A stretch of DNA of 64,000 bases, from the IMG/VR virus record IMGVR_UViG_3300047375_000738; one strand, 5' to 3'. The position numbers and the translations under genes are program-made. The DNA is from a virus (lineage: Duplodnaviria; Caudoviricetes). Under the pieces are notes generated by a model that did not search any database, was not told the origin of the DNA, and worked only from the letters and a program-made list of their open reading frames with translations. Positions 3,534 through 29,791 of the stretch are shown here, in pieces. Numbering within the stretch: position 1 is the first letter of the stretch; each line of letters starts with the position of its first letter.

Positions 3534-3897
3534 GATACTTTTCCTATTTGTACTATCTATTAAACACGCTTTTGCTGATATGTTTACACAAACATATATC
3601 AAACAACCTTTTACTAAACTTAAATATTTTGACAATGGACACAGACATTATCTACATCACGGATTGAGTAACTTTGCTGTGTGTTTATTTTTTGTATCGC
3701 CAACATGGGCTATAATTTACAGTGTATTTGATTACATTGCACATTGGCATATTGATTGGGGTAAAACAGTATTCTATACAAAATTTAATTGGCAGCGAAC
3801 AGAAAAGAGATTCTGGAGACTGCAATCATTAGACCAAATGCTGCATTACGCTACTGCATTTTTAATTGTGTGGCATGCTCATACTTACGTTTTATAA
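3526..3897 (+). CDS. DUF3307-like membrane protein
   Basis: KHAFAD..Q, H..LH, HWHID..K, DQ.LH motifs. Confidence 0.7.
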   Translation: MIEILFLFVLSIKHAFADMFTQTYIKQPFTKLKYFDNGHRHYLHHGLSNFAVCLFFVSPTWAIIYSVFDYIAHWHIDWGKTVFYTKFNWQRTEKRFWRLQSLDQMLHYATAFLIVWHAHTYVL

Positions 3898-4501
3898 TTT
3901 CAGCAACACTATCTGAACACATAGTTTCATAATGTGTATGTGCTACTTCAATGTGTTCCATATCTTCTCTATGCGTCATACTTGCTAGAGTACACACACC
4001 GTCATTAGGACCGTTGTGATAAGGTACACTACCTGTTGTAGTTACAATCTGTGTCCAAGGCATTTCTAGTTGCATTTCATTTGCTTCACGTATTGGATCG
4101 CTTTTACGTCCTATATCTCTAAACAGTGGATAACTTGGTACAATGTATTTTGCCCAGTCTGCTGTACTACTGCCTCTAAATGGCGTGCTTATACTTACAC
4201 CGCCTACTACTCTCACCCACTGTGTAAGATGTAGTGCGTACAATCCGCCCATGCTATGTCCTATTACAAAATGCGGACCCTTGCCCTTCACTGCATCAAC
4301 AATCATTTCAATGTTATCTTGAAAGCGATTCATGCTGCTATAGTTTATAGATATTTCATTGGTAAAGTTTGTTTGCATTTGCAAATACCTAAAGCTCAAA
4401 CTAGTTTGATTAGCACCGTGTAGCCAAATTACATTTATGTCATCTGTGGTGTGTTTTTCCGTGGCTGTAGAACCAAATAAGTTTCGTATATAATTGAGCA
4501 T
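3851..4501 (-). CDS. alpha/beta hydrolase
   Basis: LHG oxyanion motif, GHSMGG elbow, NDG..., H.HYE. Confidence 0.8.
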   Translation of the reverse strand: MLNYIRNLFGSTATEKHTTDDINVIWLHGANQTSLSFRYLQMQTNFTNEISINYSSMNRFQDNIEMIVDAVKGKGPHFVIGHSMGGLYALHLTQWVRVVGGVSISTPFRGSSTADWAKYIVPSYPLFRDIGRKSDPIREANEMQLEMPWTQIVTTTGSVPYHNGPNDGVCTLASMTHREDMEHIEVAHTHYETMCSDSVAEIIKRKYEHATQLKMQ

Positions 4502-4504
4502 ATA

Positions 4505-6550
4505 TTATTTACTTGTGGCTACAAAGATGCCATTCCAATCTGAAGGCAAATCCTGTGTTTTCATATATTCACAACGTTCAATCCACATATCGTAATACTT
4601 TTCCATCTTGTGATCAAAGTGTGTATACAACATCTTACACTTGTCTATAGCGTCATCAAAACGCTGCGCACGATAGTCTTCGTGCATTTGTTCATGTTTC
4701 TTCTGCGCACTACGCCATGCAGGATATGGCTTATCCAACACTGTGTAAATTTTAAGTCCTACACTTTTGCCTTTGACTTGCAAGTCATCTACTTTGAGGT
4801 AGAAGAAATCTGTTCTAGTTGCTTCGTATGTAGATTCTCCTACAAGTAACAAACACCCATACTCTTTACATTTGCTTTCTACTCTTGCTGCGGTGCTGAC
4901 AGCGTCTCCAAGGACATCATATGAATGACGTTTAGTACTTCCCATCTCACCAAGGTACCCCAGCCCTGTGTTGATGCCAGCGCCCATACCAACAGCAGGA
5001 CGACCATCAGGTATAATAACTTCTTCATTAAACTTCTCCACTGCTTTAAGCATGTCTAAGCCACACTGTACTGCTGTACGAGGATGGTTAGGATCATCTA
5101 TAGGCGCATTGTGTATGTGCATACTAGCATCGCCTATGTACTTGATTATCATTCCGTCTGACTCTAACACAGGTTCTGTAATAGCATCCATGTAGCCATT
5201 CATAATACGTGTGAGTCCTTGTACGTCATCTCCAAAACTTTCTCCTAGTGGTGTAAATCCACGCAAGTCTGAGAATACAATACTTACATTACGCTTAGTG
5301 CCCAGTTTAATAAGCTCTGGCGACTCCTGTAGTAGTCTAACCACTGTTGGTGATGCATAACCTTCGAATTGCTTTTTGATGGCTTGCTTTTGTAAGAACT
5401 CGTCGACGAACTTGACAATGTATCGTTTGAGCCCAACGAGCAAGATGAAAGCACTGATAACAGCGCCATCGATAAGAATATTTTGTGTATTGAAAACATA
5501 TATGCTCCCTCCTATAAACCCGCCCACGGACAACACAAAGAAGGCTATGCCTACAAATGTCCAACGGGCGAGTATGATTAACAAAACGCCGGCTGCAACT
5601 AGAGCTGCTAGTTCTGCCCACTGCTCTGCGTCTGGATGTCTGCTAATATTTGATTCATTAAACACTGTTCCTAGCATTGCTGCCTGTATTTCGTGTGGAA
5701 ATACACTGCCTGCTGCTGTTGCTAGTGGCTGTGTAAGCCCTGCTGCTGTTGGTCCTACAAACACTATACCGCCAGCAAAGTCATCTGGTAAGTCAACTGC
5801 GCTCACGCTTTTGCTGCGCTGACTCCAGTCTATCCATACTTCGCCTGTGGGGCTTGTTTGTATTATACCATATGCTGGTATGCGTAGTTTATCTACACCC
5901 ATAGGTGATAGTTTAATTTGGAAGCTAGGATCGCCTGCTAGTACACGTAGCACTTCCATAGTAACATTTGGATATAATGTACCACTAGATTCAACTACTA
6001 GAGGTATACGTCTAGTAACACCGTCTACTTCCGGCCAACTGTTTGTTATTCCACTACCTACTGCGTTGAATTCAATATCTGGTACATTTGCGATGATTCC
6101 TGGAACACTAGGAATAGTATAAAGAAAGTCGCTGTTAACAATAGTAGCGCCTGGATTGACTGGTTCATTTTTGTTGTCCTCCGCACCTAACATAGTAACT
6201 ATAACAGGTAATTGCTGCATTGTCAAGCCTAATGTAGCATCTTCACCTGACCTGTCTTCTTCCGACATCAATACATTGAAAACCACTAGTCCAGCGCCTC
6301 TGGCATATAAGTCCTCTATAAGGCTACCATAATCACCTCTCGGCCACGGCCATTGTCCGTAAGCCTCTAAACTTGGTTCATCGATGTTCACTGTGTAAAT
6401 GTTGTTTTCAACAGGTTGTTGATTTACAATAAGTGTATCAAAGTAGCGTAGTCGTATGCTTTCTATAAATGCTGGATTAAGATAGTATACATAACTCAGC
6501 ACACCTAATAATAAAACACTCCAAAGCGGGCTGAACAGTACTTTTCTCAT
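4505..6550 (-). CDS. CHASE2-domain class III adenylate/guanylate cyclase
   Basis: CHASE2 motifs (IDEPSL..YGQWPWPR, EVDGVTRR), 3 TM helices, FSDLRGFT, KYIGDA, GINTG, GDAVSTAARVES. Confidence 0.9.
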   Translation of the reverse strand: MRKVLFSPLWSVLLLGVLSYVYYLNPAFIESIRLRYFDTLIVNQQPVENNIYTVNIDEPSLEAYGQWPWPRGDYGSLIEDLYARGAGLVVFNVLMSEEDRSGEDATLGLTMQQLPVIVTMLGAEDNKNEPVNPGATIVNSDFLYTIPSVPGIIANVPDIEFNAVGSGITNSWPEVDGVTRRIPLVVESSGTLYPNVTMEVLRVLAGDPSFQIKLSPMGVDKLRIPAYGIIQTSPTGEVWIDWSQRSKSVSAVDLPDDFAGGIVFVGPTAAGLTQPLATAAGSVFPHEIQAAMLGTVFNESNISRHPDAEQWAELAALVAAGVLLIILARWTFVGIAFFVLSVGGFIGGSIYVFNTQNILIDGAVISAFILLVGLKRYIVKFVDEFLQKQAIKKQFEGYASPTVVRLLQESPELIKLGTKRNVSIVFSDLRGFTPLGESFGDDVQGLTRIMNGYMDAITEPVLESDGMIIKYIGDASMHIHNAPIDDPNHPRTAVQCGLDMLKAVEKFNEEVIIPDGRPAVGMGAGINTGLGYLGEMGSTKRHSYDVLGDAVSTAARVESKCKEYGCLLLVGESTYEATRTDFFYLKVDDLQVKGKSVGLKIYTVLDKPYPAWRSAQKKHEQMHEDYRAQRFDDAIDKCKMLYTHFDHKMEKYYDMWIERCEYMKTQDLPSDWNGIFVATSK

Positions 6551-6837
6551 TTTTTAATTCCTAACAACTTTGCTTTCATTGCGGCCGCAGAGGGCGACTC
6601 TTGTGGTTTGGATTCGGCACTCCCCGTTCGTACTCTACTACTGGGTTGTAGTTTGGAGGGTGCTTCTTGCGAAATCCCCGATGAGGTATTATTAAGCGTT
6701 TCTCTGACTCGGGCAATTCTTGCTTTGTGTTCTTGTTTGCGCTGGTGAAGGTAGGCTTCAAGTAATTTCTCCTGAAACTTTTCCTCCACCATATTTTCTA
6801 TATGTTCTTTGAACAACCATTCGCTTATCCATTTCAT
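6547..6837 (-). CDS. hypothetical protein
   Basis: TAAATA-4-ATG start, overlaps cyclase start. Confidence 0.65.
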   Translation of the reverse strand: MKWISEWLFKEHIENMVEEKFQEKLLEAYLHQRKQEHKARIARVRETLNNTSSGISQEAPSKLQPSSRVRTGSAESKPQESPSAAAMKAKLLGIKK

Positions 6838-6849
6838 ACAGTATTTATT

Positions 6850-8847
6850 TTAGAACTTCCAAGTAAACCCTGCGTTTACAGTTGTACTTGTATTATCGCC
6901 TGCTGTAATTCTGTTAACACCGGCTGCAATACCTATGTTTTCATTAATAGCATGATTTACACCTAAACCTATACGAGTTGTTCCTGCATCGTCAAAATCT
7001 CTAGCAATATTTGCTGTTACTATATCGTTGTCAATATTGATACCAATTGTAGGATAACGATATGTTTCGCTGTTGCCTGCATCTAGTAATGCTGCTTGAA
7101 CATCGCCAGTCTCAGCAAATGCATCGTGACTTTTTGTACCAATAGTATATCCAGCAAACGGACGAACTATACCAGTTGATTTTTCTACTGTAACTGTTGC
7201 CCATCTATCGCTTGAAGTAGTAGATCCCATTGCACTAAAGTCTCCAATAGTTCTATTGTACTCTAAGTCTGTGTTTGCAGCATTTACCTGTCCTCGAACT
7301 GTAATATCGCTGTCATCAATATGTTTACCTGCACTTAAACTTAATACTGTTGTAGACATGCTACCTGTACTACCTTCACCAGTTATATCTGTTGTAATAC
7401 GATTTATACCTAAACCAATAGTCATACTATTATCAGTCACAGCATTATGTCCTAATCCAAACACTCGAGACTCAGCACTATATCCGTTACTCATATCATG
7501 GTTAATACGTCCTGCTGTAAATCCATCACCTATACCTACGCTGCTATGTGGACGCAATGTTAACATTTGATCCATTTGATCCATACGTCCTGTAAATGCA
7601 CCTGGATCTGTAACGGTTACAACATCATCTGCTCTACTTGCTGTAGTGACTGTTGGTGTAGCGTCTGTAACAACTTCGCTACCATCACTCATTGTTGCTG
7701 TAGTTCTAACAAAACTAGTTGTAGTGATTGTCATTGGTGTTGTTACTGTTGTAGTTGTTTCTCTAGCAATAGTTTGTACACCTTCTGCTACACTGCTATC
7801 GTGTGTTGTTTGTGCTGCTGTAAGTACTGGCAACGCTGTATTAACTGCTTCACTACTGCTGGTAATAGTTTCTGTACTTGTACTAACTACTGTAGGTTCT
7901 GCTGCGCCATCTGCTGCGTCTGTAGCACTACCAACATCTTCTAATGTACCCCAACTACTGATGTCACCACCGCCACCTGCGCCTGCTGTAATAGCAGCAT
8001 CGGCAGCATCAAACGCACTTGGTCCAAATATGTATGCGTAACTTGCTGTAAGTATATCGCCTGTGCTTACATCGGCCCAGTTCCAACTTAGTCCAATAGT
8101 GTTGTCGCCTCTGTTTGTGTTTGACTCAGAGTCAAAAGAATTTTCTGTATAACCATCTGCCTCTGTTGACCAGCCTGTAATACCTGCATCAACATTAGAG
8201 TCTGTAGAATAAAGTCCTAACGCATAGCGTGATACTGTTGCTTCTGCAAATGCTACATTACTATCTGGAATAACACCATAACCTAATACGTTGTCTGTAG
8301 CACTTGTGTCGCCAGTTTCTGGCATAGCATCTGGATCAATAAAGCGTCCAAAACTTAGTGCGGTAGCATCACTGCCTGCTGTAATCTGTGTGCCGATCTC
8401 AATGTGTTCTGATGTAGCACCTAAAGTATATGTGTTTTCTATTTCCCAACCACTGTGTGCTGAATTTGTACCAGTCCAAGTAAGTGAATTATCACCGTTT
8501 GTTAAACCATCTGCATCTACCCAAGTACTTCCGCCTTGGTTATTATTTTTGCTGTTAGTACCATCTATCTTGATAGCAAAGCCATCAAACGGTGAACCTG
8601 GTGTTAGGTAGTCGCCTTGTGCGCTATCTGCTGGAAATGTGCCTGAACCTGTGCTGTCAAACTGTAGTCCTGGACGAGTGCTTCCTCCTGATCCAAAAGT
8701 ACCTGCGTCACCATTGACTCCGGCTTTTACATAACTGTTTTCAAGTATACCCATGCCTGTTGCTGTTGTACTCATGCTACTCGTATCTGCCAATGCAGTA
8801 GTACTAAGTAGTGCTGCCATTATACTGGCAATCGCTATTCTTTTCAT
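6850..8847 (-). CDS. autotransporter-like outer-membrane protein
   Basis: signal peptide, passenger region, Thr-rich linker, about 250 aa amphipathic beta C-terminus ending GFTWKF. Confidence 0.7.
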   Translation of the reverse strand: MKRIAIASIMAALLSTTALADTSSMSTTATGMGILENSYVKAGVNGDAGTFGSGGSTRPGLQFDSTGSGTFPADSAQGDYLTPGSPFDGFAIKIDGTNSKNNNQGGSTWVDADGLTNGDNSLTWTGTNSAHSGWEIENTYTLGATSEHIEIGTQITAGSDATALSFGRFIDPDAMPETGDTSATDNVLGYGVIPDSNVAFAEATVSRYALGLYSTDSNVDAGITGWSTEADGYTENSFDSESNTNRGDNTIGLSWNWADVSTGDILTASYAYIFGPSAFDAADAAITAGAGGGGDISSWGTLEDVGSATDAADGAAEPTVVSTSTETITSSSEAVNTALPVLTAAQTTHDSSVAEGVQTIARETTTTVTTPMTITTTSFVRTTATMSDGSEVVTDATPTVTTASRADDVVTVTDPGAFTGRMDQMDQMLTLRPHSSVGIGDGFTAGRINHDMSNGYSAESRVFGLGHNAVTDNSMTIGLGINRITTDITGEGSTGSMSTTVLSLSAGKHIDDSDITVRGQVNAANTDLEYNRTIGDFSAMGSTTSSDRWATVTVEKSTGIVRPFAGYTIGTKSHDAFAETGDVQAALLDAGNSETYRYPTIGINIDNDIVTANIARDFDDAGTTRIGLGVNHAINENIGIAAGVNRITAGDNTSTTVNAGFTWKF

Positions 8848-8901
8848 ATTTTACCCTCATTGTTTGGATGCCGGTTGCGCCCTCACGCCGCGGTCCACAC
8901 T

Positions 8902-9243
8902 CTATTTAAGCCTAATCTCTACTCCTAAAACTACGCCGATATCTTCACTTTCTATGCCTGGTGCTATAAACATTCTCATTTTACCTATGTCATATGTGCC
9001 TCTAATATAAGGAGTAAGCGAGCCATTGTTGTAGCCTGTTACAAATGCAGCTTCAAAACCAAAATTGTTTATTTCTTGTCGATGTCCTGCATATACGCTT
9101 AAATTTTCTACACTATTATAATAGGCGCCTGTAATAAATTTTTCATGTGTGTATCTTAGGTGTGGATGAAAAGCGTTATATTTTTCATCAAATCCAATAT
9201 GGCTACTGAGTCCTAAACTAATCGTTAGTGCTTCTAATATCAT
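8902..9243 (-). CDS. small outer-membrane beta-barrel (PagP-like phage family)
   Basis: N..HPHLRY, GAYYNS, S.YAG, TGY motifs; terminal beta strand. Confidence 0.55.
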   Translation of the reverse strand: MILEALTISLGLSSHIGFDEKYNAFHPHLRYTHEKFITGAYYNSVENLSVYAGHRQEINNFGFEAAFVTGYNNGSLTPYIRGTYDIGKMRMFIAPGIESEDIGVVLGVEIRLK

Positions 9244-9352
9244 CTTGCTTTTCCTCGTAATGAGTGTCTATTTTGGTTGTTAACTTTTCAGCAGCCCACC
9301 AACCAAATGCTGTAAAAAATCCTGCTATGAAAAATGTCAATACAGTTTCCAT
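9218..9352 (-). CDS. 44-aa membrane peptide
   Basis: TAATG-coupled to curlin-like gene; one TM helix. Confidence 0.55.
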   Translation of the reverse strand: METVLTFFIAGFFTAFGWWAAEKLTTKIDTHYEEKQDDIRSTND

Positions 9353-10188
9353 TAGTTGTGCTGCTGAACACTTACAACACACCCGTTTGGGTTTGTACAT
9401 ACACCACTTAGGCTAAATGATTTAGCAGAAGTGTCTGTTTGTTGACTAACTGTTACGTTATAGGCAGGACCATATATGCTTTCTACACTAATGTTTGCTG
9501 ATGCAGAATTCATTCCACGTTGGTTTAAATCAATTACATTGTAATTTCCTGACAACTCAATGTCAGCAGTTTTTTGTCCGCCATTGCCTTTCTGATAAGT
9601 TGTAACATCATTTCCAGTACCTGAAATATCAATGTCTAATAGATGCTTTTGATTTCCTCTTTGCGTCATTTCAACATCGTTGCTATTACCAGTAATTTCT
9701 GCGGTTAATTCATGCCTACCATAGCCTGAAGTTTGTTGATCAGTTTGTGCTGCTTTAATATCGTTATAATTTCCAGTAATTGTAACTGTAGCAGTGTGAT
9801 CACCGCCCTCTGCTAAGTCAATTGTACCATCAGCATGTTTACCTTGCCATATTACCAAGTCGTTGTTATCACCAGTAACTCGAGAAGTGATCATTCCACT
9901 ATCACCGCCGCCGCCTTGATAGAAATCTACATTATTGTTATCACCGTCTAACATTCCCTGGACGCCATGATACATACCTGTTTGTACCATATCAATCGTA
10001 TTGCCATCGCCTTCAATACCTTTAGTCTCACCAGGTATTCCACTGATATAATTTACATCCCCATCTTGAGTCAAGGTTAATGCATTATTGTCACCAACTT
10101 GGTATACATAAATTTCATTTGCATTACTAGTAGTCGTTTTGATTGATAGTAATATTGTTAGCGCCACCGACGCCCACTTGATATCCAT
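9352..10188 (-). CDS. curlin-repeat secreted protein (CsgA/CsgB-like)
   Basis: signal peptide, ANEIY, repeated G-x-x-N-x5-Q-x-G (GNSNDVEMTQRG, GTGNDVTTYQKG, GNYNVIDLNQRG). Confidence 0.75.
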   Translation of the reverse strand: MDIKWASVALTILLSIKTTTSNANEIYVYQVGDNNALTLTQDGDVNYISGIPGETKGIEGDGNTIDMVQTGMYHGVQGMLDGDNNNVDFYQGGGGDSGMITSRVTGDNNDLVIWQGKHADGTIDLAEGGDHTATVTITGNYNDIKAAQTDQQTSGYGRHELTAEITGNSNDVEMTQRGNQKHLLDIDISGTGNDVTTYQKGNGGQKTADIELSGNYNVIDLNQRGMNSASANISVESIYGPAYNVTVSQQTDTSAKSFSLSGVCTNPNGCVVSVQQHN

Positions 10189-11269
10189 ATTTGTAAAATC
10201 CTCCCTGCACCATGTCAACACTATAACTATGACTTTGACTTAGTCTTAATTGAAAAAAGTGTTGATCGCCTTCTGCTCTCCTTACTATAAAATAAGGATA
10301 TTCTTCATCGTAAAATATATTTGTTTCTGGATCTAGTCCAAAAAACTTTTCTTGAAAAAATTGTATGTTTTGAGTTCCTAGCTCATCAAACCACTGTGCT
10401 AATATTTCAGCAAGTTGTTTTTCCATAGCATCTATAAACTCTGAATTTAGATAACTTGTATTATCTAAGTCTGTAACCCAGATGTTTTTAATTCCTTCTA
10501 CAAGCGGATCTTTATCAAGTTCGTCAAACTTTAAAAAATCAATATCTAACAAATTTGTGTTTGGATATTGCCTTACTATTTCCTCTGTGTAAGGAGAAAC
10601 TTTTCTTATGATTAACATTGCGGTAAGCATATCTTCTGGCAAGTTTAGTGTAATTGGTCTTTTAGGCACTGCTCCTGCGTGTGCTACAACTGTAGTTTGA
10701 AATGCTTGATTCATAATAACTGTGCCTGCGTCTGATTCTACTTCAATTTCGCCAACAACACACAGTCCTGCAACATCGCAACTAGGCAATAGTGTTACCA
10801 TACTACCGCCAATCTCGTCTATAATCATCATAAAATCTGTGCCACGCACGTTGATAGTTGCACTTGGTGTTCTAATGTTTACTCTTTGTCTGCTGTTTTT
10901 TGCAATTTGTCCACTAGCATAACGTACTGCACCTAGTGTTGCTTTCATTGACAATGCACCTTTTTGTGTAGCAGGATCGTATATAAACTCATCTATAGTC
11001 ATACGACTATTTTCTGTAACATCAACCCTAGTGTCATCAATAAAATCTAAACGTAATCGACCTTTGCCTGTTACAACATTGTCGTTCATTTGTAACCCAA
11101 GACCTACTTCGCCTGTGTATGCTTCTTTGTCTCGCTTGATTGTACTGCTGCCTTTAGATTCGGCAATCTCGCCAATAGGAGATGCTTTGGCCATATCTAC
11201 ATACGCCAGCGCAAAAAATATTATGTATAAAAGTCTAGTCGGTTTGTGTAATATCAACTGTGTTACCAT
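10127..11269 (-). CDS. FecR-domain protein
   Basis: N-terminal TM/signal, D.V.TG.GR....F.DDT, ENS...IDEFIYDP, RTPSATINVRGTDF. Confidence 0.85.
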   Translation of the reverse strand: MVTQLILHKPTRLLYIIFFALAYVDMAKASPIGEIAESKGSSTIKRDKEAYTGEVGLGLQMNDNVVTGKGRLRLDFIDDTRVDVTENSRMTIDEFIYDPATQKGALSMKATLGAVRYASGQIAKNSRQRVNIRTPSATINVRGTDFMMIIDEIGGSMVTLLPSCDVAGLCVVGEIEVESDAGTVIMNQAFQTTVVAHAGAVPKRPITLNLPEDMLTAMLIIRKVSPYTEEIVRQYPNTNLLDIDFLKFDELDKDPLVEGIKNIWVTDLDNTSYLNSEFIDAMEKQLAEILAQWFDELGTQNIQFFQEKFFGLDPETNIFYDEEYPYFIVRRAEGDQHFFQLRLSQSHSYSVDMVQGGFYKYGYQVGVGGANNITINQNDY

Positions 11270-11987
11270 CCCCAGTCGAAGTCATGTCTACCAAGTTGTC
11301 GTTGATGCCACTTTGTGTAATAGTGTATACACTGCCAGCGCCTGTAATGTCTAATGTTACAGTATGCCCTAAACTATCGCCGTTACCTGATATTGCTAAA
11401 TCAACAATGTTACCAGGTGAACTGGTAGTTAATGTGTTATCATTTGCACTTGTAATTGTTGATCCACTTCCTGTTGAAGCACTGTTATCAATTTCAATAG
11501 TAATGTTAGCATCAGTGCCATCTAAGTCCATGTCAACTAAGTTGTAGTCACCGTCTACTGTGAAGTTAATTGTAGCATCGCCAGCGTCATTGGTTTCGCC
11601 AATCTTGAAGTCAAACGTATTCAAGTCGCCTGTTGTAGTAATATTTAATGTTACACTATCGCAATTTCCGCCACCTGCTGTTGCTGCGCTATCACACAAT
11701 AAGTCAACATTGTTACTGTCTCCAGTAAACTGCCATGTACCTGTGTAGCTATCACCTGCAATAATTGCATCAATGGTATTAGTATCGCCAGTTTGTGTTA
11801 TACTAAACACCATGTTGTCGCCATAGAGGCCAGCGTCTGTAGTACTGTCTCCAATTTTGTTATCCTTGCCATCTTGTGAGATGTCCAAATCTAAACTATC
11901 GCCAATTTGTGTGATGTATATCTCGTTTGCATGTGCTGCACTTACGAGAACCCACGATAGTATAAAACTATATAATGCTGCCCTCAT
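11235..11987 (-). CDS. curlin-repeat secreted protein
   Basis: signal peptide, ANEIYITQIGD, repeats SQDGKDN/TQTGDTN/TGDSN/TQSGINDN/TGDGNTVDITQ. Confidence 0.7.
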   Translation of the reverse strand: MRAALYSFILSWVLVSAAHANEIYITQIGDSLDLDISQDGKDNKIGDSTTDAGLYGDNMVFSITQTGDTNTIDAIIAGDSYTGTWQFTGDSNNVDLLCDSAATAGGGNCDSVTLNITTTGDLNTFDFKIGETNDAGDATINFTVDGDYNLVDMDLDGTDANITIEIDNSASTGSGSTITSANDNTLTTSSPGNIVDLAISGNGDSLGHTVTLDITGAGSVYTITQSGINDNLVDMTSTGDGNTVDITQTD

Positions 11988-12093
11988 TTTTGCTCCTCTG
12001 GGGTTTCCCCTAAATGTATTTACCTCGTGCCTCAACGAATAATAAATACACTTATATTTAGTGTAAATATATTTACAGATAAAGGCTATTATA

Positions 12094-12372
12094 ATGAAAA
12101 CTGCATACGTAATCAACGCTTTGAAACAAGCAGAACAAAAACACAAAGAACAAGAAGAATTCTGGAACTTGTTTAACGAGATTTGGTCTGATGAAGTGCC
12201 AAAACAATATTCTTTAAATGACGAAGTTGATCAATTACAGATTGATAAGATACAACGAGCGTTAGATGAAAACGATGGCAACAGAACTTATGCTGCAAAA
12301 TCACTCGGTATTAAAAGAGAAACACTATTAGCTAAAATGAAACGCTATTGTTTAAACTGCCACAAGTCTTGA
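12094..12372 (+). CDS. Fis-family HTH protein
   Basis: IQRALDENDGNRTYAAKSLGIKRETLLAKMKRY (HTH_8 pattern). Confidence 0.8.
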   Translation: MKTAYVINALKQAEQKHKEQEEFWNLFNEIWSDEVPKQYSLNDEVDQLQIDKIQRALDENDGNRTYAAKSLGIKRETLLAKMKRYCLNCHKS

Positions 12373-13127
12373 TTTGCACCTTGATAGATTAATTCAATGA
12401 CGCCTTGTTCAATTGCTTCACGCACTGCATAGTTTGTAGGTTCGTTAACACTATAACCTGTTTCAATTTCTAATGCCTTTGTGCCTAAGTCTAAGAATTT
12501 AAATACATCTGCTCCAGCACGATAACTTGCTATTGTTTTTTCTGATGCAACGCTAACTAGTACACGCCCTGTACTAACACTTACAATACGCATTGCTACG
12601 GTTACTGTGTCGACTCTGTATTCTGCTGCTGTTCCAATACCAAAGTATCTAGCGCCAGTGCCTCCTGTAGTAACATTTGAGTCATACCCAACTATACCGC
12701 CTTCGATAATTATACCAGCAAATTTCATTGGTGCTAACGGTGAAGCATTATCTTTTTCGTAGTTTTCTCTAGTGTTACGTATTAATTGACGCTCGCGAAT
12801 AATGTTGTCCATGCCCACACGTTCTACAACTTCAAACCATGTGCCGTTGCCTGCTTGTAACAATGCATCTATTACCCAAACTTCAGCGCCTTGTGTTACA
12901 GCACTTGACAGGTTAGCAACATTTTCTGCTGGCTTACGCTGCCCAGTTTTGTCTGTAAAACTATAAACAGCAATTGTCATCACAGGACCATTTAATGGCT
13001 TTAGTTCGTTAAGTTCTTCAACCATTGGATTATCTTGTATCTTTGCAGGGCTTTGTAGCTGTGCTGGAATATTTCCTGCGCTGCATCCTGCAAGCATTAA
13101 TGCTGTAATTAACAATAAATGTTTCAA
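12345..13127 (-). CDS. csgG: curli secretion channel CsgG
   Basis: lipobox LAGC; AVYSF.DKTGQRKP, AVTQGA, ERVGMDN...ERQ.IR, GGIVGYD, YR.D.VTV..R.V.V.TG.V. Confidence 0.9.
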   Translation of the reverse strand: MKHLLLITALMLAGCSAGNIPAQLQSPAKIQDNPMVEELNELKPLNGPVMTIAVYSFTDKTGQRKPAENVANLSSAVTQGAEVWVIDALLQAGNGTWFEVVERVGMDNIIRERQLIRNTRENYEKDNASPLAPMKFAGIIIEGGIVGYDSNVTTGGTGARYFGIGTAAEYRVDTVTVAMRIVSVSTGRVLVSVASEKTIASYRAGADVFKFLDLGTKALEIETGYSVNEPTNYAVREAIEQGVIELIYQGANQDLWQFKQ

Positions 13128-13597
13128 AAGTTAAAGTCTCCTGCACCAGGAATAGTTATTTCTGTGTAGCCATCTTCGCCATCAATAATAAGTGTAATAC
13201 TACCATCAGTTTCATCTTTGGTCCATGTAATAGTAGAGCCTTCTACTTCGGTTGTACCAGTATTCGAACACGCTGGCTGGTCTTCTTCGCCACATGCTGC
13301 AAACATATTATCGACCATTTGTTTTGATAGTGTAGCGTAGATACGTGATTCTAAGTTACGTATAAACTTGTTTAGCACTGTGTTTTCTAGTTCACGCTCT
13401 AAACGATCAGCTTCACGTTGTGCTTCATCGTCAATGTCTTTTTGTCTATTAAACTGTAATTGCTCCATACTTAGTACATGAGCACTATACCCATTGCCAC
13501 TAAACGAAGGTGATTTAAAACTATGCACCAAATCGGCACTTGCTGCTGGTGCATAGTTTGTCATTATAAAAAAGATTATCAAGAATGTGTATCGCAT
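13124..13597 (-). CDS. csgF: curli assembly protein CsgF
   Basis: mature N-terminus LVHSFKSPSFSGNG resembles CsgF F.F.NP.FGG; adjacent to csgG. Confidence 0.8.
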   Translation of the reverse strand: MRYTFLIIFFIMTNYAPAASADLVHSFKSPSFSGNGYSAHVLSMEQLQFNRQKDIDDEAQREADRLERELENTVLNKFIRNLESRIYATLSKQMVDNMFAACGEEDQPACSNTGTTEVEGSTITWTKDETDGSITLIIDGEDGYTEITIPGAGDFNF

Positions 13598-29101: not shown

Positions 29102-29432
29102 ATGTTTCGCCTGTTTCACGGAAGAAGTTTTCACTCCAAAATGCTTTGTCGTCAATCCATACATCGTAGTTTTCTTTTTTGCCTACGCTGAGTTCATGAT
29201 ACTTTGCACCCCAACCCTCTAATTGGTTCTTGGTTAGGTCGTAATAGTCAACGCCACTAACACACCCGCGAGCAGTCATATACTTAATTGTATGTCCTGC
29301 ATCGTACAATGCATTTACTCGTGCAATGCGTTCTGGCATTGGAATATGATTTGCATAATCCTTCTTGCCGCCGCTGTCTGGAATAATTACTTCCTTGCAG
29401 ATCGTACCGTCGATATCAATTACATATTTCAT
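29094..29432 (-). CDS. HAD-family phosphatase (capsule-biosynthesis-phosphatase-like)
   Basis: DIDGTIC, TARG, K..YD.WIDDKA. Confidence 0.8.
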   Translation of the reverse strand: MKYVIDIDGTICKEVIIPDSGGKKDYANHIPMPERIARVNALYDAGHTIKYMTARGCVSGVDYYDLTKNQLEGWGAKYHELSVGKKENYDVWIDDKAFWSENFFRETGETYE

Positions 29433-29450
29433 TAAACGTCCTTTATATTA

Positions 29451-29757
29451 GAGTGGCACTTCTGTTGCTAGGCAGTACCCGCCCCCACATACCCTTAGGC
29501 TGCTAATGCCATTTCTGGCGCATAATTGTTATTTGCAATTATAAAGTTTGACCAATAACGCAGTCATCCGGTTAACTCCACTTCACTTTCACACCTGTCG
29601 ATCCTAGTTCTGCCCCATCATAAACATACGACTTGCGGCTTTCGGCCCTTGTCCTATGCACAGGAAAGTAGGTGCATCTACTCTCATATGTTTATGGTGG
29701 AGCAGCGCGGTACTGCCCCGCGGTCCAGTATGTGTCTACGTTGCTTCAACGTCAACA
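29451..29757 (-). ncRNA. ssrA: permuted two-piece tmRNA, tag ANNNYAPEMALAA (29495-29536)
   Basis: T-arm CGCGG-GGCAGUA-CCGCG then CUGCUCCACCA (end 29695) precedes GGGGCAGAACUAGGAUCGAC (start 29616); acceptor stem with G3.U. Confidence 0.92.
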
Positions 29758-29760
29758 TAT

Positions 29761-29791
29761 TATTTATAACATAGTTTTGTAAGCATGTCAA
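29761..29791 (-). promoter_or_regulatory. tmRNA promoter (sigma70 overlapping late TATAAATA)
   Basis: TTGACA-17-TATAAATA. Confidence 0.7.

Follow-up and report, generated by a model that had tools for sequence, protein, structure and literature searches.

A phage curli block with a FecR-domain protein and a CHASE2 class III cyclase: a plausible, unproven envelope-to-cAMP relay

Can a phage bring into its host a signalling pathway that runs from the cell envelope to a cyclic nucleotide? The question is raised by 64,000 nucleotides of the IMG/VR virus record IMGVR_UViG_3300047375_000738 (Caudoviricetes; the window, in what follows, means this whole stretch), where a gene for a FecR-domain protein and a gene for a class III adenylate cyclase with a CHASE2 domain lie within one block of curli genes. 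The window is that of a T4-like marine phage, with class Ia ribonucleotide reductase and tail-fibre PHROGs and a transfer-messenger RNA (tmRNA), and the block runs from 13597 down to 3851 on the minus strand, apart from one plus-strand helix-turn-helix (HTH) gene. It is a further copy of the published phage block of type VIII secretion system (T8SS, curli), FecR and adenylate cyclase genes, here in a larger T4-like marine phage and with three extra envelope-protein genes inserted. To the published block we add an argument from the pairing of CHASE2 with FecR, an active centre fixed as D-K-D-D-S-R, an absent receiver and an HTH gene that travels with the block. We lean, by a little, towards reading the block as a relay from a FecR adaptor through the CHASE2 cyclase to cyclic AMP (cAMP), spliced by phages into a curli operon. 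The two genes at its centre are:

10127-11269, minus strand: secreted FecR-domain protein (Pfam FecR, E 2.8e-8)
4505-6550, minus strand: protein with CHASE2 and class III cyclase domains (Pfam CHASE2, E 2.7e-35; Guanylate_cyc, E 1e-17)

A phage T8SS region with FecR and adenylate cyclase genes was reported from myo- and podophages by Wittmers et al. (2022) as global and expressed (PMC9599517). That study described the block in SAR11 and OM43 phages, regarded FecR and the cyclase as foreign to bacterial curli operons, read FecR as an iron regulator and did not mention CHASE2. The csgFG genes were first noted in PMC7029224 and, for phage Melnitz, in PMC9004378, both of which discuss the pore and never the cyclase or FecR. 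The window shares with the pelagiphage module (PMC9599517) the genes csgF, csgG, curlin, FecR, curlin and cyclase in identical order, but it adds genes for a PagP-like, an autotransporter-like and a 96-aa protein between the second curlin gene and the cyclase gene and an alpha/beta hydrolase gene behind the latter, has a Fis-type HTH gene within the block, and appears to come from a much larger phage.

Our scan of IMG/VR gave 80 loci, and linkage was counted on the 53 that extend 6 kb or further beyond the cyclase gene on its upstream side. FecR and CsgG genes are both present, in the same gene order, at 52 of these 53 phage loci, which bears out the co-occurrence across phage genomes to which the original prediction, made from the letters of the window, had looked. 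The same prediction had placed the FecR gene in one orientation with the cyclase gene and between two curlin genes, and the Pfam matches, all on the minus strand, agree. The gap between the FecR and cyclase genes has a median of ~1.6 kb in the relatives and measures 3.6 kb in the window. Relatives were found only at the protein level: a megablast search with the stretch gave no match among phage records, and protein searches of such records returned two phages only, Methylophilales phage Melnitz, with a cyclase 51% identical, and Pelagibacter phage HTVC008M, with one 34% identical. The order in each is csgF-csgG-curlin-FecR-curlin-cyclase. Phages can also carry the cyclase apart from the block's other genes, as on a 136-kb phage-like contig (L093/L094) whose CHASE2 cyclase has the canonical D-K-D-T-N-R centre and near which no FecR or curli gene was detected.

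FecR and CHASE2 are a recurrent pair in bacteria. Our alphaproteobacterial sample comprised 121 genomes. CHASE2 occurs in 51 of them, and the top 20 matches are without exception CHASE2 cyclases; a FecR gene adjoins seven of these 20 loci according to our own FecR profile, and Pfam confirmed six of the seven. For ten genomes the places of Pfam FecR matches were compared with those of CHASE2 within a span of ~7 kb. All 15 CHASE2 genes have FecR within that distance in the five genomes whose best CHASE2 locus had already proved to be flanked by FecR (10 of the 15 were not pre-selected), as do 2 of 10 in the other five, giving ~17 of 25 for the ten genomes together. The least biased count is ~19/35 (7/20 by our own profile plus 12/15 further loci by Pfam), compared with ~1% expected from the 1-6 FecR copies per genome. 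Seen from the other side, 18 of 32 alphaproteobacterial FecR matches adjoin CHASE2 genes.

A FecR pattern scan of bacterial genomes yielded two genuine bacterial loci, both from Acidobacteriota, in which a CHASE2-HD gene lies directly downstream of a FecR(-OmpA) gene. The scan also gave five contigs (L003-L007) of metagenome-assembled genomes (MAGs), labelled Rhodobacteraceae, Legionellales, Pirellulales, Flavobacteriaceae and Pelagibacter (four phyla). These were rejected as bacterial loci, because they have the phage gene order and are probably phage DNA binned into MAGs. One MAG, G001, accounts for five CsgG matches and three contigs with CHASE2, and the phage gene order is present on its CsgG+CHASE2 contigs. 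With G001 excluded, none of the ~29 CsgG places in the alphaproteobacterial sample is near CHASE2, and the joining of the FecR-CHASE2 pair with curli genes appears phage-specific, because no true bacterial contig has CsgG near CHASE2.

Bacterial systems described previously show the same pairing in other surroundings. In Burkholderia and Pseudomonas, an operon of a LysM-FecR gene and a CHASE2 histidine kinase gene sets a periplasmic FecR protein beside a CHASE2 receptor, as in the phage, but with another output and no curli (PMC5192318). A Campylobacterota cluster of CHASE2 cyclase, FecR, phosphodiesterase (PDE) and tetratricopeptide-repeat (TPR) genes likewise has FecR beside CHASE2 cyclases, but with other accessory genes and no curli (PMC9239204). 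The Sinorhizobium meliloti proteins CyaD1, CyaD2 and CyaK resemble the phage cyclase in combining CHASE2 with a class III cyclase, in having the same C-terminal tail family and in having a FecR-domain gene, smc02177, in the locus (PMC5498481); input through an outer-membrane barrel, NsrA, and output as cAMP are features that the proposed phage relay would share with them. Features of their own are a D-K-D-(S/T)-N-R centre, the Crp-type receiver Clr and no linkage to curli. These cyclases raise cAMP in response to a plant protein sensed via NsrA in the outer membrane (PMC13001267), and smc02177 gives the same phenotype as cyclase mutants (PMC5498481). The FecR partners of bacterial CHASE2 cyclases, as at the alphaproteobacterial loci L146, L135, L132 and L136, can be surface proteins of 1000-2100 aa with cadherin, Big_9, He_PIG, RTX and LamG domains.

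The FecR protein of the window consists of a signal peptide (residues 1-29), a beta domain (33-195), an acidic disordered linker, a helix (276-305) and a C-terminal beta domain (310-377), and is 42-45% identical to its counterparts in Melnitz and HTVC008M. In an AlphaFold2 (AF2) model the N-terminal domain has a predicted local distance difference test (pLDDT) score of ~90. It matches the PupR CCSSD (6ovk_R; VIA Z 15.8, root-mean-square deviation 2.6 Å, 135 residues) and BDI_1681 (4m0n; Z 14.6), and a match to the 'cell surface anchoring domain' of 5ix9 also falls on this N-terminal FecR domain, not on the C-terminal one. The periplasmic FecR fold is thus shared with the FecR/PupR regulators (6OVK), in which its binding partner is an outer-membrane transducer's periplasmic domain. 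The phage protein differs from these regulators in being secreted, in its own C-terminal domain and in the lack of FecI and FecA from its block: no gene for a FecI sigma factor or a TonB-dependent FecA was found among the block's genes by Pfam or PHROG. Its FecR domain begins straight after the signal peptide and, because a cytoplasmic anti-sigma domain and a transmembrane (TM) anchor are absent, the protein is not a FecR-type anti-sigma regulator.

The C-terminal domain (gene part 10127-10330) has a conserved motif, ...Y-x-I-x-M-x-Q-G...G-x-G-x-x-N-x-I-x-I-x-Q, which recalls curlin half-repeats and closes with the invariant Gln377. Residues 310-377 gave no match to Pfam Curlin_rpt at E 0.05 or better and, folded alone (pLDDT 77), nothing in Foldseek at E 0.001 or better, with a best VIA Z of 3.7, and it is in its motif that this domain resembles curlin. 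No bacterial full-length homologue that includes it was found by the FecR pattern scan of bacterial genomes.

In the cyclase, TM1 is followed by a periplasmic CHASE2 domain (~25-307), three TM segments (308-382), the cyclase domain (418-610) and a conserved C-terminal tail (611-681). The CHASE2 (PF05226) profile scores 122.6 bits with a cut-off of 26.3, and the class III cyclase (PF00211) 64.8 bits with a curated cut-off of 21.9 and PDB matches to E 1.7e-21. The original prediction of a CHASE2 class III cyclase with three TM segments was right about the domains and wrong in its count of segments: by hydropathy, hydrophobic segments lie at 3-22, 308-353 and 355-382, that is, one at the N-terminus and about three after CHASE2, the usual 1+3 topology of CHASE2 proteins.

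Catalytic residues were assigned by alignment to the solved cyclases 2w01, 3r5g and 1wc0. The metal-binding Asp residues are D428 (SDLRG) and D474 (KYIGD), both invariant in 60 homologues, and the base positions are K470 and D545, the second of which is Ser or Thr in bacterial relatives. The alignment agrees here with the original prediction, which had recognized both metal Asp residues (SDLRG, IGD), the ATP-type Lys/Asp and a Ser in place of the catalytic Asn (GDAVSTAAR). This Ser, S552 (SYDVLGDAVSTAAR), occupies the site of the ribose-positioning Asn, where the solved structures have Asn; the corresponding residue in mammalian AC-II, Asn1025 (Asn1146 in CyaC), makes a hydrogen bond to the ribose O4' (PMC9223806), and the role of this residue is also covered in PMC6005667. 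The phosphate positions are occupied by R556 (likewise in SYDVLGDAVSTAAR), which is invariant, and by K593 and K595 of VKGK, which are almost so; Arg430 in SDLRG is the counterpart of an alternative phosphate Arg in Cya2 (table in PMC6005667). Of the eight key residues, the phage enzyme retains seven.

The set D-K-D-D-S-R is found in all 85 phage sequences that bear the C-terminal tail, down to 48% identity; HTVC008M has D-K-D-S-N-R. The active-site survey covered 139 sequences, namely the window's protein and 138 representatives at 50% identity, among which D-K-D-(S/T)-N-R occurs in 128 and D-K-D-D-S-R in six, the window's protein included. Of the six, four are members of the phage clade, a fifth comes from a phage-type contig and the last from a short contig with FecR downstream. 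The ~70-aa tail, which ends ...DWDGVFxATSK, is an ancestral trait of the bacterial family. In distant phage homologues, identity to the window's protein is 76% in the cyclase domain, 73% in the linker, 37% in CHASE2 and 26% in the membrane segments. The retention of the cyclase domain where CHASE2 has diverged suggests that catalysis is under constraint and still works, while the sensor evolves fast. Judged from these comparisons of sequence and from the ATP-type base pair Lys470/Asp545, the cyclase is likely to be a working enzyme. In addition, the fixed pair of changes, Asn to Ser and Ser/Thr to Asp, offers a natural experiment in the catalysis of class III cyclases.

The mechanism that we favour would work as follows. 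Phages would have taken the FecR-CHASE2 pair, in the form in which bacteria keep it, and spliced it into a csgF-csgG-curlin operon. The periplasmic FecR protein would serve as a protein-protein adaptor between the CHASE2 domain and an outer-membrane component, which may be the CsgG/CsgF pore, the curlins or the added barrels; this role is supported by the PupR signalling domain, because a domain of the same fold there binds an outer-membrane transducer. A change at the outer membrane would pass through the three membrane helices to a dimeric cyclase, which would alter cAMP in the infected cell. Such an envelope-to-cAMP relay is plausible and unproven. What the data show are the domains, the topology and the catalytic residues, a cyclase under strong purifying selection and the linkage of the genes, in phages as in bacteria; we infer the FecR-CHASE2 contact, the direction in which the signal runs, the cue, the cAMP product and the receiver alike. 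When CHASE2 (25-312) and the FecR protein (30-380) were modelled as a complex on our own alignments, the score was 0.00, which speaks neither for nor against contact.

Several observations weigh against this relay. SMc02177, the only FecR neighbour of a CHASE2 cyclase to have been studied, is a target of cAMP-Clr and is dispensable for signal perception (PMC5498481), so the arrow may run from the cyclase to FecR; a shared FecR-cyclase pathway is supported in S. meliloti, whereas an upstream position of FecR is unsupported there. Many bacterial CHASE2 cyclases lack a FecR neighbour, P0266 and P0270 of the bacterial representatives among them. In the active site, the ribose Asn has become Ser and the family's Ser/Thr base position has become Asp, and activity or product may differ because the equivalent Asn1025 makes the hydrogen bond to the ribose. 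Searches of Melnitz, HTVC008M and three relatives of the window of 105-134 kb (L014, L017, L082) gave no cyclic-nucleotide (cNMP)-binding domain, and only 2 of 31 genomes of Pelagibacteraceae, which may not be the host of the window's phage, have such a domain; a class III cyclase is likewise present in only 2 of the 31. Since none was found in these phages or in most SAR11 genomes, a cAMP receiver is lacking for at least the SAR11 phages. The original prediction had spoken of a periplasmic relay that senses curli or surface assembly and changes host cyclic-nucleotide levels; curli assembly is a putative cue only. The relay part has linkage, the bacterial pairing, the PupR/FecR fold and the NsrA precedent on its side and the dispensability of SMc02177 against it, while the second part presumes a receiver, of which the related phages showed none and which SAR11 genomes mostly lack.

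It is somewhat unlikely, in our judgement, that the FecR protein is instead an envelope effector or adaptor that works together with the curlins, either after the cyclase in the pathway or parallel to it, with CHASE2 sensing another cue directly or via an outer-membrane barrel. SMc02177, which is activated by cAMP-Clr, has the cyclase-mutant phenotype and is not needed for a perception that goes through NsrA (PMC5498481), would fit such a role. So would the position of the phage FecR gene, which is interleaved with the curlin genes in overlapping frames and is not beside the cyclase gene (median gap ~1.6 kb), the nature of bacterial FecR partners, often giant surface proteins (cadherin, Big_9, RTX, LamG), and the C-terminal motif that recalls curlin half-repeats. 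However, the test in S. meliloti covered one signal only, and because the bacterial adjacency of FecR to CHASE2 holds irrespective of output (HD, kinase or cyclase; PMC5192318), FecR is better understood as a partner of the sensor domain than as a target of one output. A cyclase of changed function, making another cyclic nucleotide, having very low activity or acting as a scaffold, would mean that there is no cAMP signalling at all; this we regard as quite unlikely. The missing receiver would be accounted for, as would two coupled active-site changes, one of them at the ribose-positioning residue, that are fixed in the 85 phage sequences and confined in the survey to six of 139 (five of the six from the phage clade or a phage-type contig). 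But the metal, phosphate and base residues are all kept, with Lys/Asp as the classic ATP pair, no part of the protein is better conserved than the catalytic domain, contrary to decay, and the canonical Asn is retained in HTVC008M and other phages with the same block.

That the FecR protein is an iron regulator of the ferric citrate type, linking the curli pore to iron uptake, is suggested by the name of its Pfam family and was proposed in PMC9599517, but the idea is hardly credible for a protein that has neither cytoplasmic anti-sigma domain nor membrane anchor, in a block with no FecI or TonB-dependent FecA gene, and from a family of which 18 of 32 alphaproteobacterial matches adjoin CHASE2 genes. 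A bolder proposal, to which we would give a slim chance, is a self-contained trans-envelope signalling device of the phage for hosts that have no cAMP system of their own. FecR would hold curli or the CsgG-CsgF pore by its curlin-like motif and inform CHASE2 of fibre assembly, of cell contact or of an attack by a second phage, and the product of the modified D-K-D-D-S-R cyclase would be read by a phage-encoded, non-Crp receiver, possibly via the Fis-type HTH protein, so as to time curli display, lysis or other late events.

If the favoured relay holds and FecR-CHASE2 is a real sensor, the block would represent a rare virus-borne pathway from receptor to second messenger, and would offer a handle on the roles of CHASE2 domains and stand-alone FecR-domain proteins in bacteria. 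The absent receiver is the sharpest question that the block raises. The phages supply a whole envelope apparatus to hosts of which those known, SAR11 and OM43, are reported to be without one (PMC9599517, PMC9004378), and metagenome matches indicate that these phages are very abundant in the ocean.

The other genes of the block are:

13124-13597, minus strand: CsgF, outer-membrane accessory protein of the T8SS (Pfam CsgF, E 1.3e-12); leads the conserved order in the phage loci
12345-13127, minus strand: CsgG, curli secretion pore lipoprotein (Pfam CsgG, E 9.1e-53)
12094-12372, plus strand: 92-aa Fis-type HTH protein, between csgG and curlin-1 (HTH_8, E 1.5e-9)
11235-12146, minus strand: curlin-repeat protein 1 (Pfam Curlin_rpt, E 2.3e-4); position conserved
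9352-10221, minus strand: curlin-repeat protein 2 (Pfam Curlin_rpt, E 2.1e-9); likely start ATG 10188
8902-9243, minus strand: 113-aa protein resembling the C-terminal part of PagP-type outer-membrane barrels (phrog_3600, E 1.2e-11)
6850-8847, minus strand: 665-aa secreted protein with a signal peptide and the C-terminal end ...FTWKF
6547-6837, minus strand: 96-aa protein (open reading frame), its stop overlapping the cyclase start; kept in near relatives
3851-4501, minus strand: alpha/beta hydrolase with GHSMGG (Pfam Abhydrolase_6, E 9.3e-7)

The FecR gene shares 35 nt with the end of curlin-1 and ~62 nt with the likely start of curlin-2. The likely start of curlin-1 is ATG 11987, which in translation gives the signal peptide MRAALYSF...AHA. 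The 665-aa protein had no match in Pfam, PHROG or PDB sequence searches; its Atlas feature matches are to viral clusters, in one of which 55% of the members carry PF03797 Autotransporter (score 0.98), and it is probably an autotransporter-type outer-membrane protein. The 96-aa protein matched no family in Pfam or PHROG. The gene for the 113-aa PagP-like protein is present in near relatives of the window and absent from Melnitz and HTVC008M. The autotransporter-like and PagP-like genes (6850-9243) occur only in the window's near clade and, with CsgG, amount to three types of outer-membrane protein in one phage operon. The hydrolase gene begins 4 nt past the cyclase stop, encodes no signal peptide and directly follows the cyclase gene in ~17 near relatives; the three inserted genes and this trailing gene are confined to the near clade.

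The HTH_8 match of the 92-aa protein reaches 37.8 bits with a cut-off of 22. Its homologues at 19 related loci without exception run against the cluster and lie either within it or just upstream of csgF, and we regard the gene as a candidate local regulator of the block; it is unmentioned in the literature that we consulted. Scans of the block for sigma-70 promoters and terminators gave nothing above shuffled expectation, and TATAAATA was not found within the block.

Near-identical cyclase and FecR sequences in metagenomes number thousands. Contig pieces nearly identical to the genes for the cyclase, FecR, curlin-1 and the 665-aa protein and to csgG-csgF occur in four marine metatranscriptome libraries from different studies, and a contig of 1,456 nt from an RNA library covers csgG and csgF. 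These pieces are weak evidence of transcription, with which they are consistent; carry-over of DNA is possible, and coverage this partial cannot show operon structure.

The clade may be that of a jumbo phage of ~300 kb, about twice the size of Melnitz or HTVC008M. The relatives L014, L017 and L082 are estimated by CheckV to be 30-37% complete, with 37% for the one of 134 kb, and the window's FecR protein occurs on a contig of 280 kb. The tmRNA gene of the window lies at 29404-29788 on the minus strand and encodes the tag peptide ANNNYAPEMALAA, as in Melnitz-type phages.

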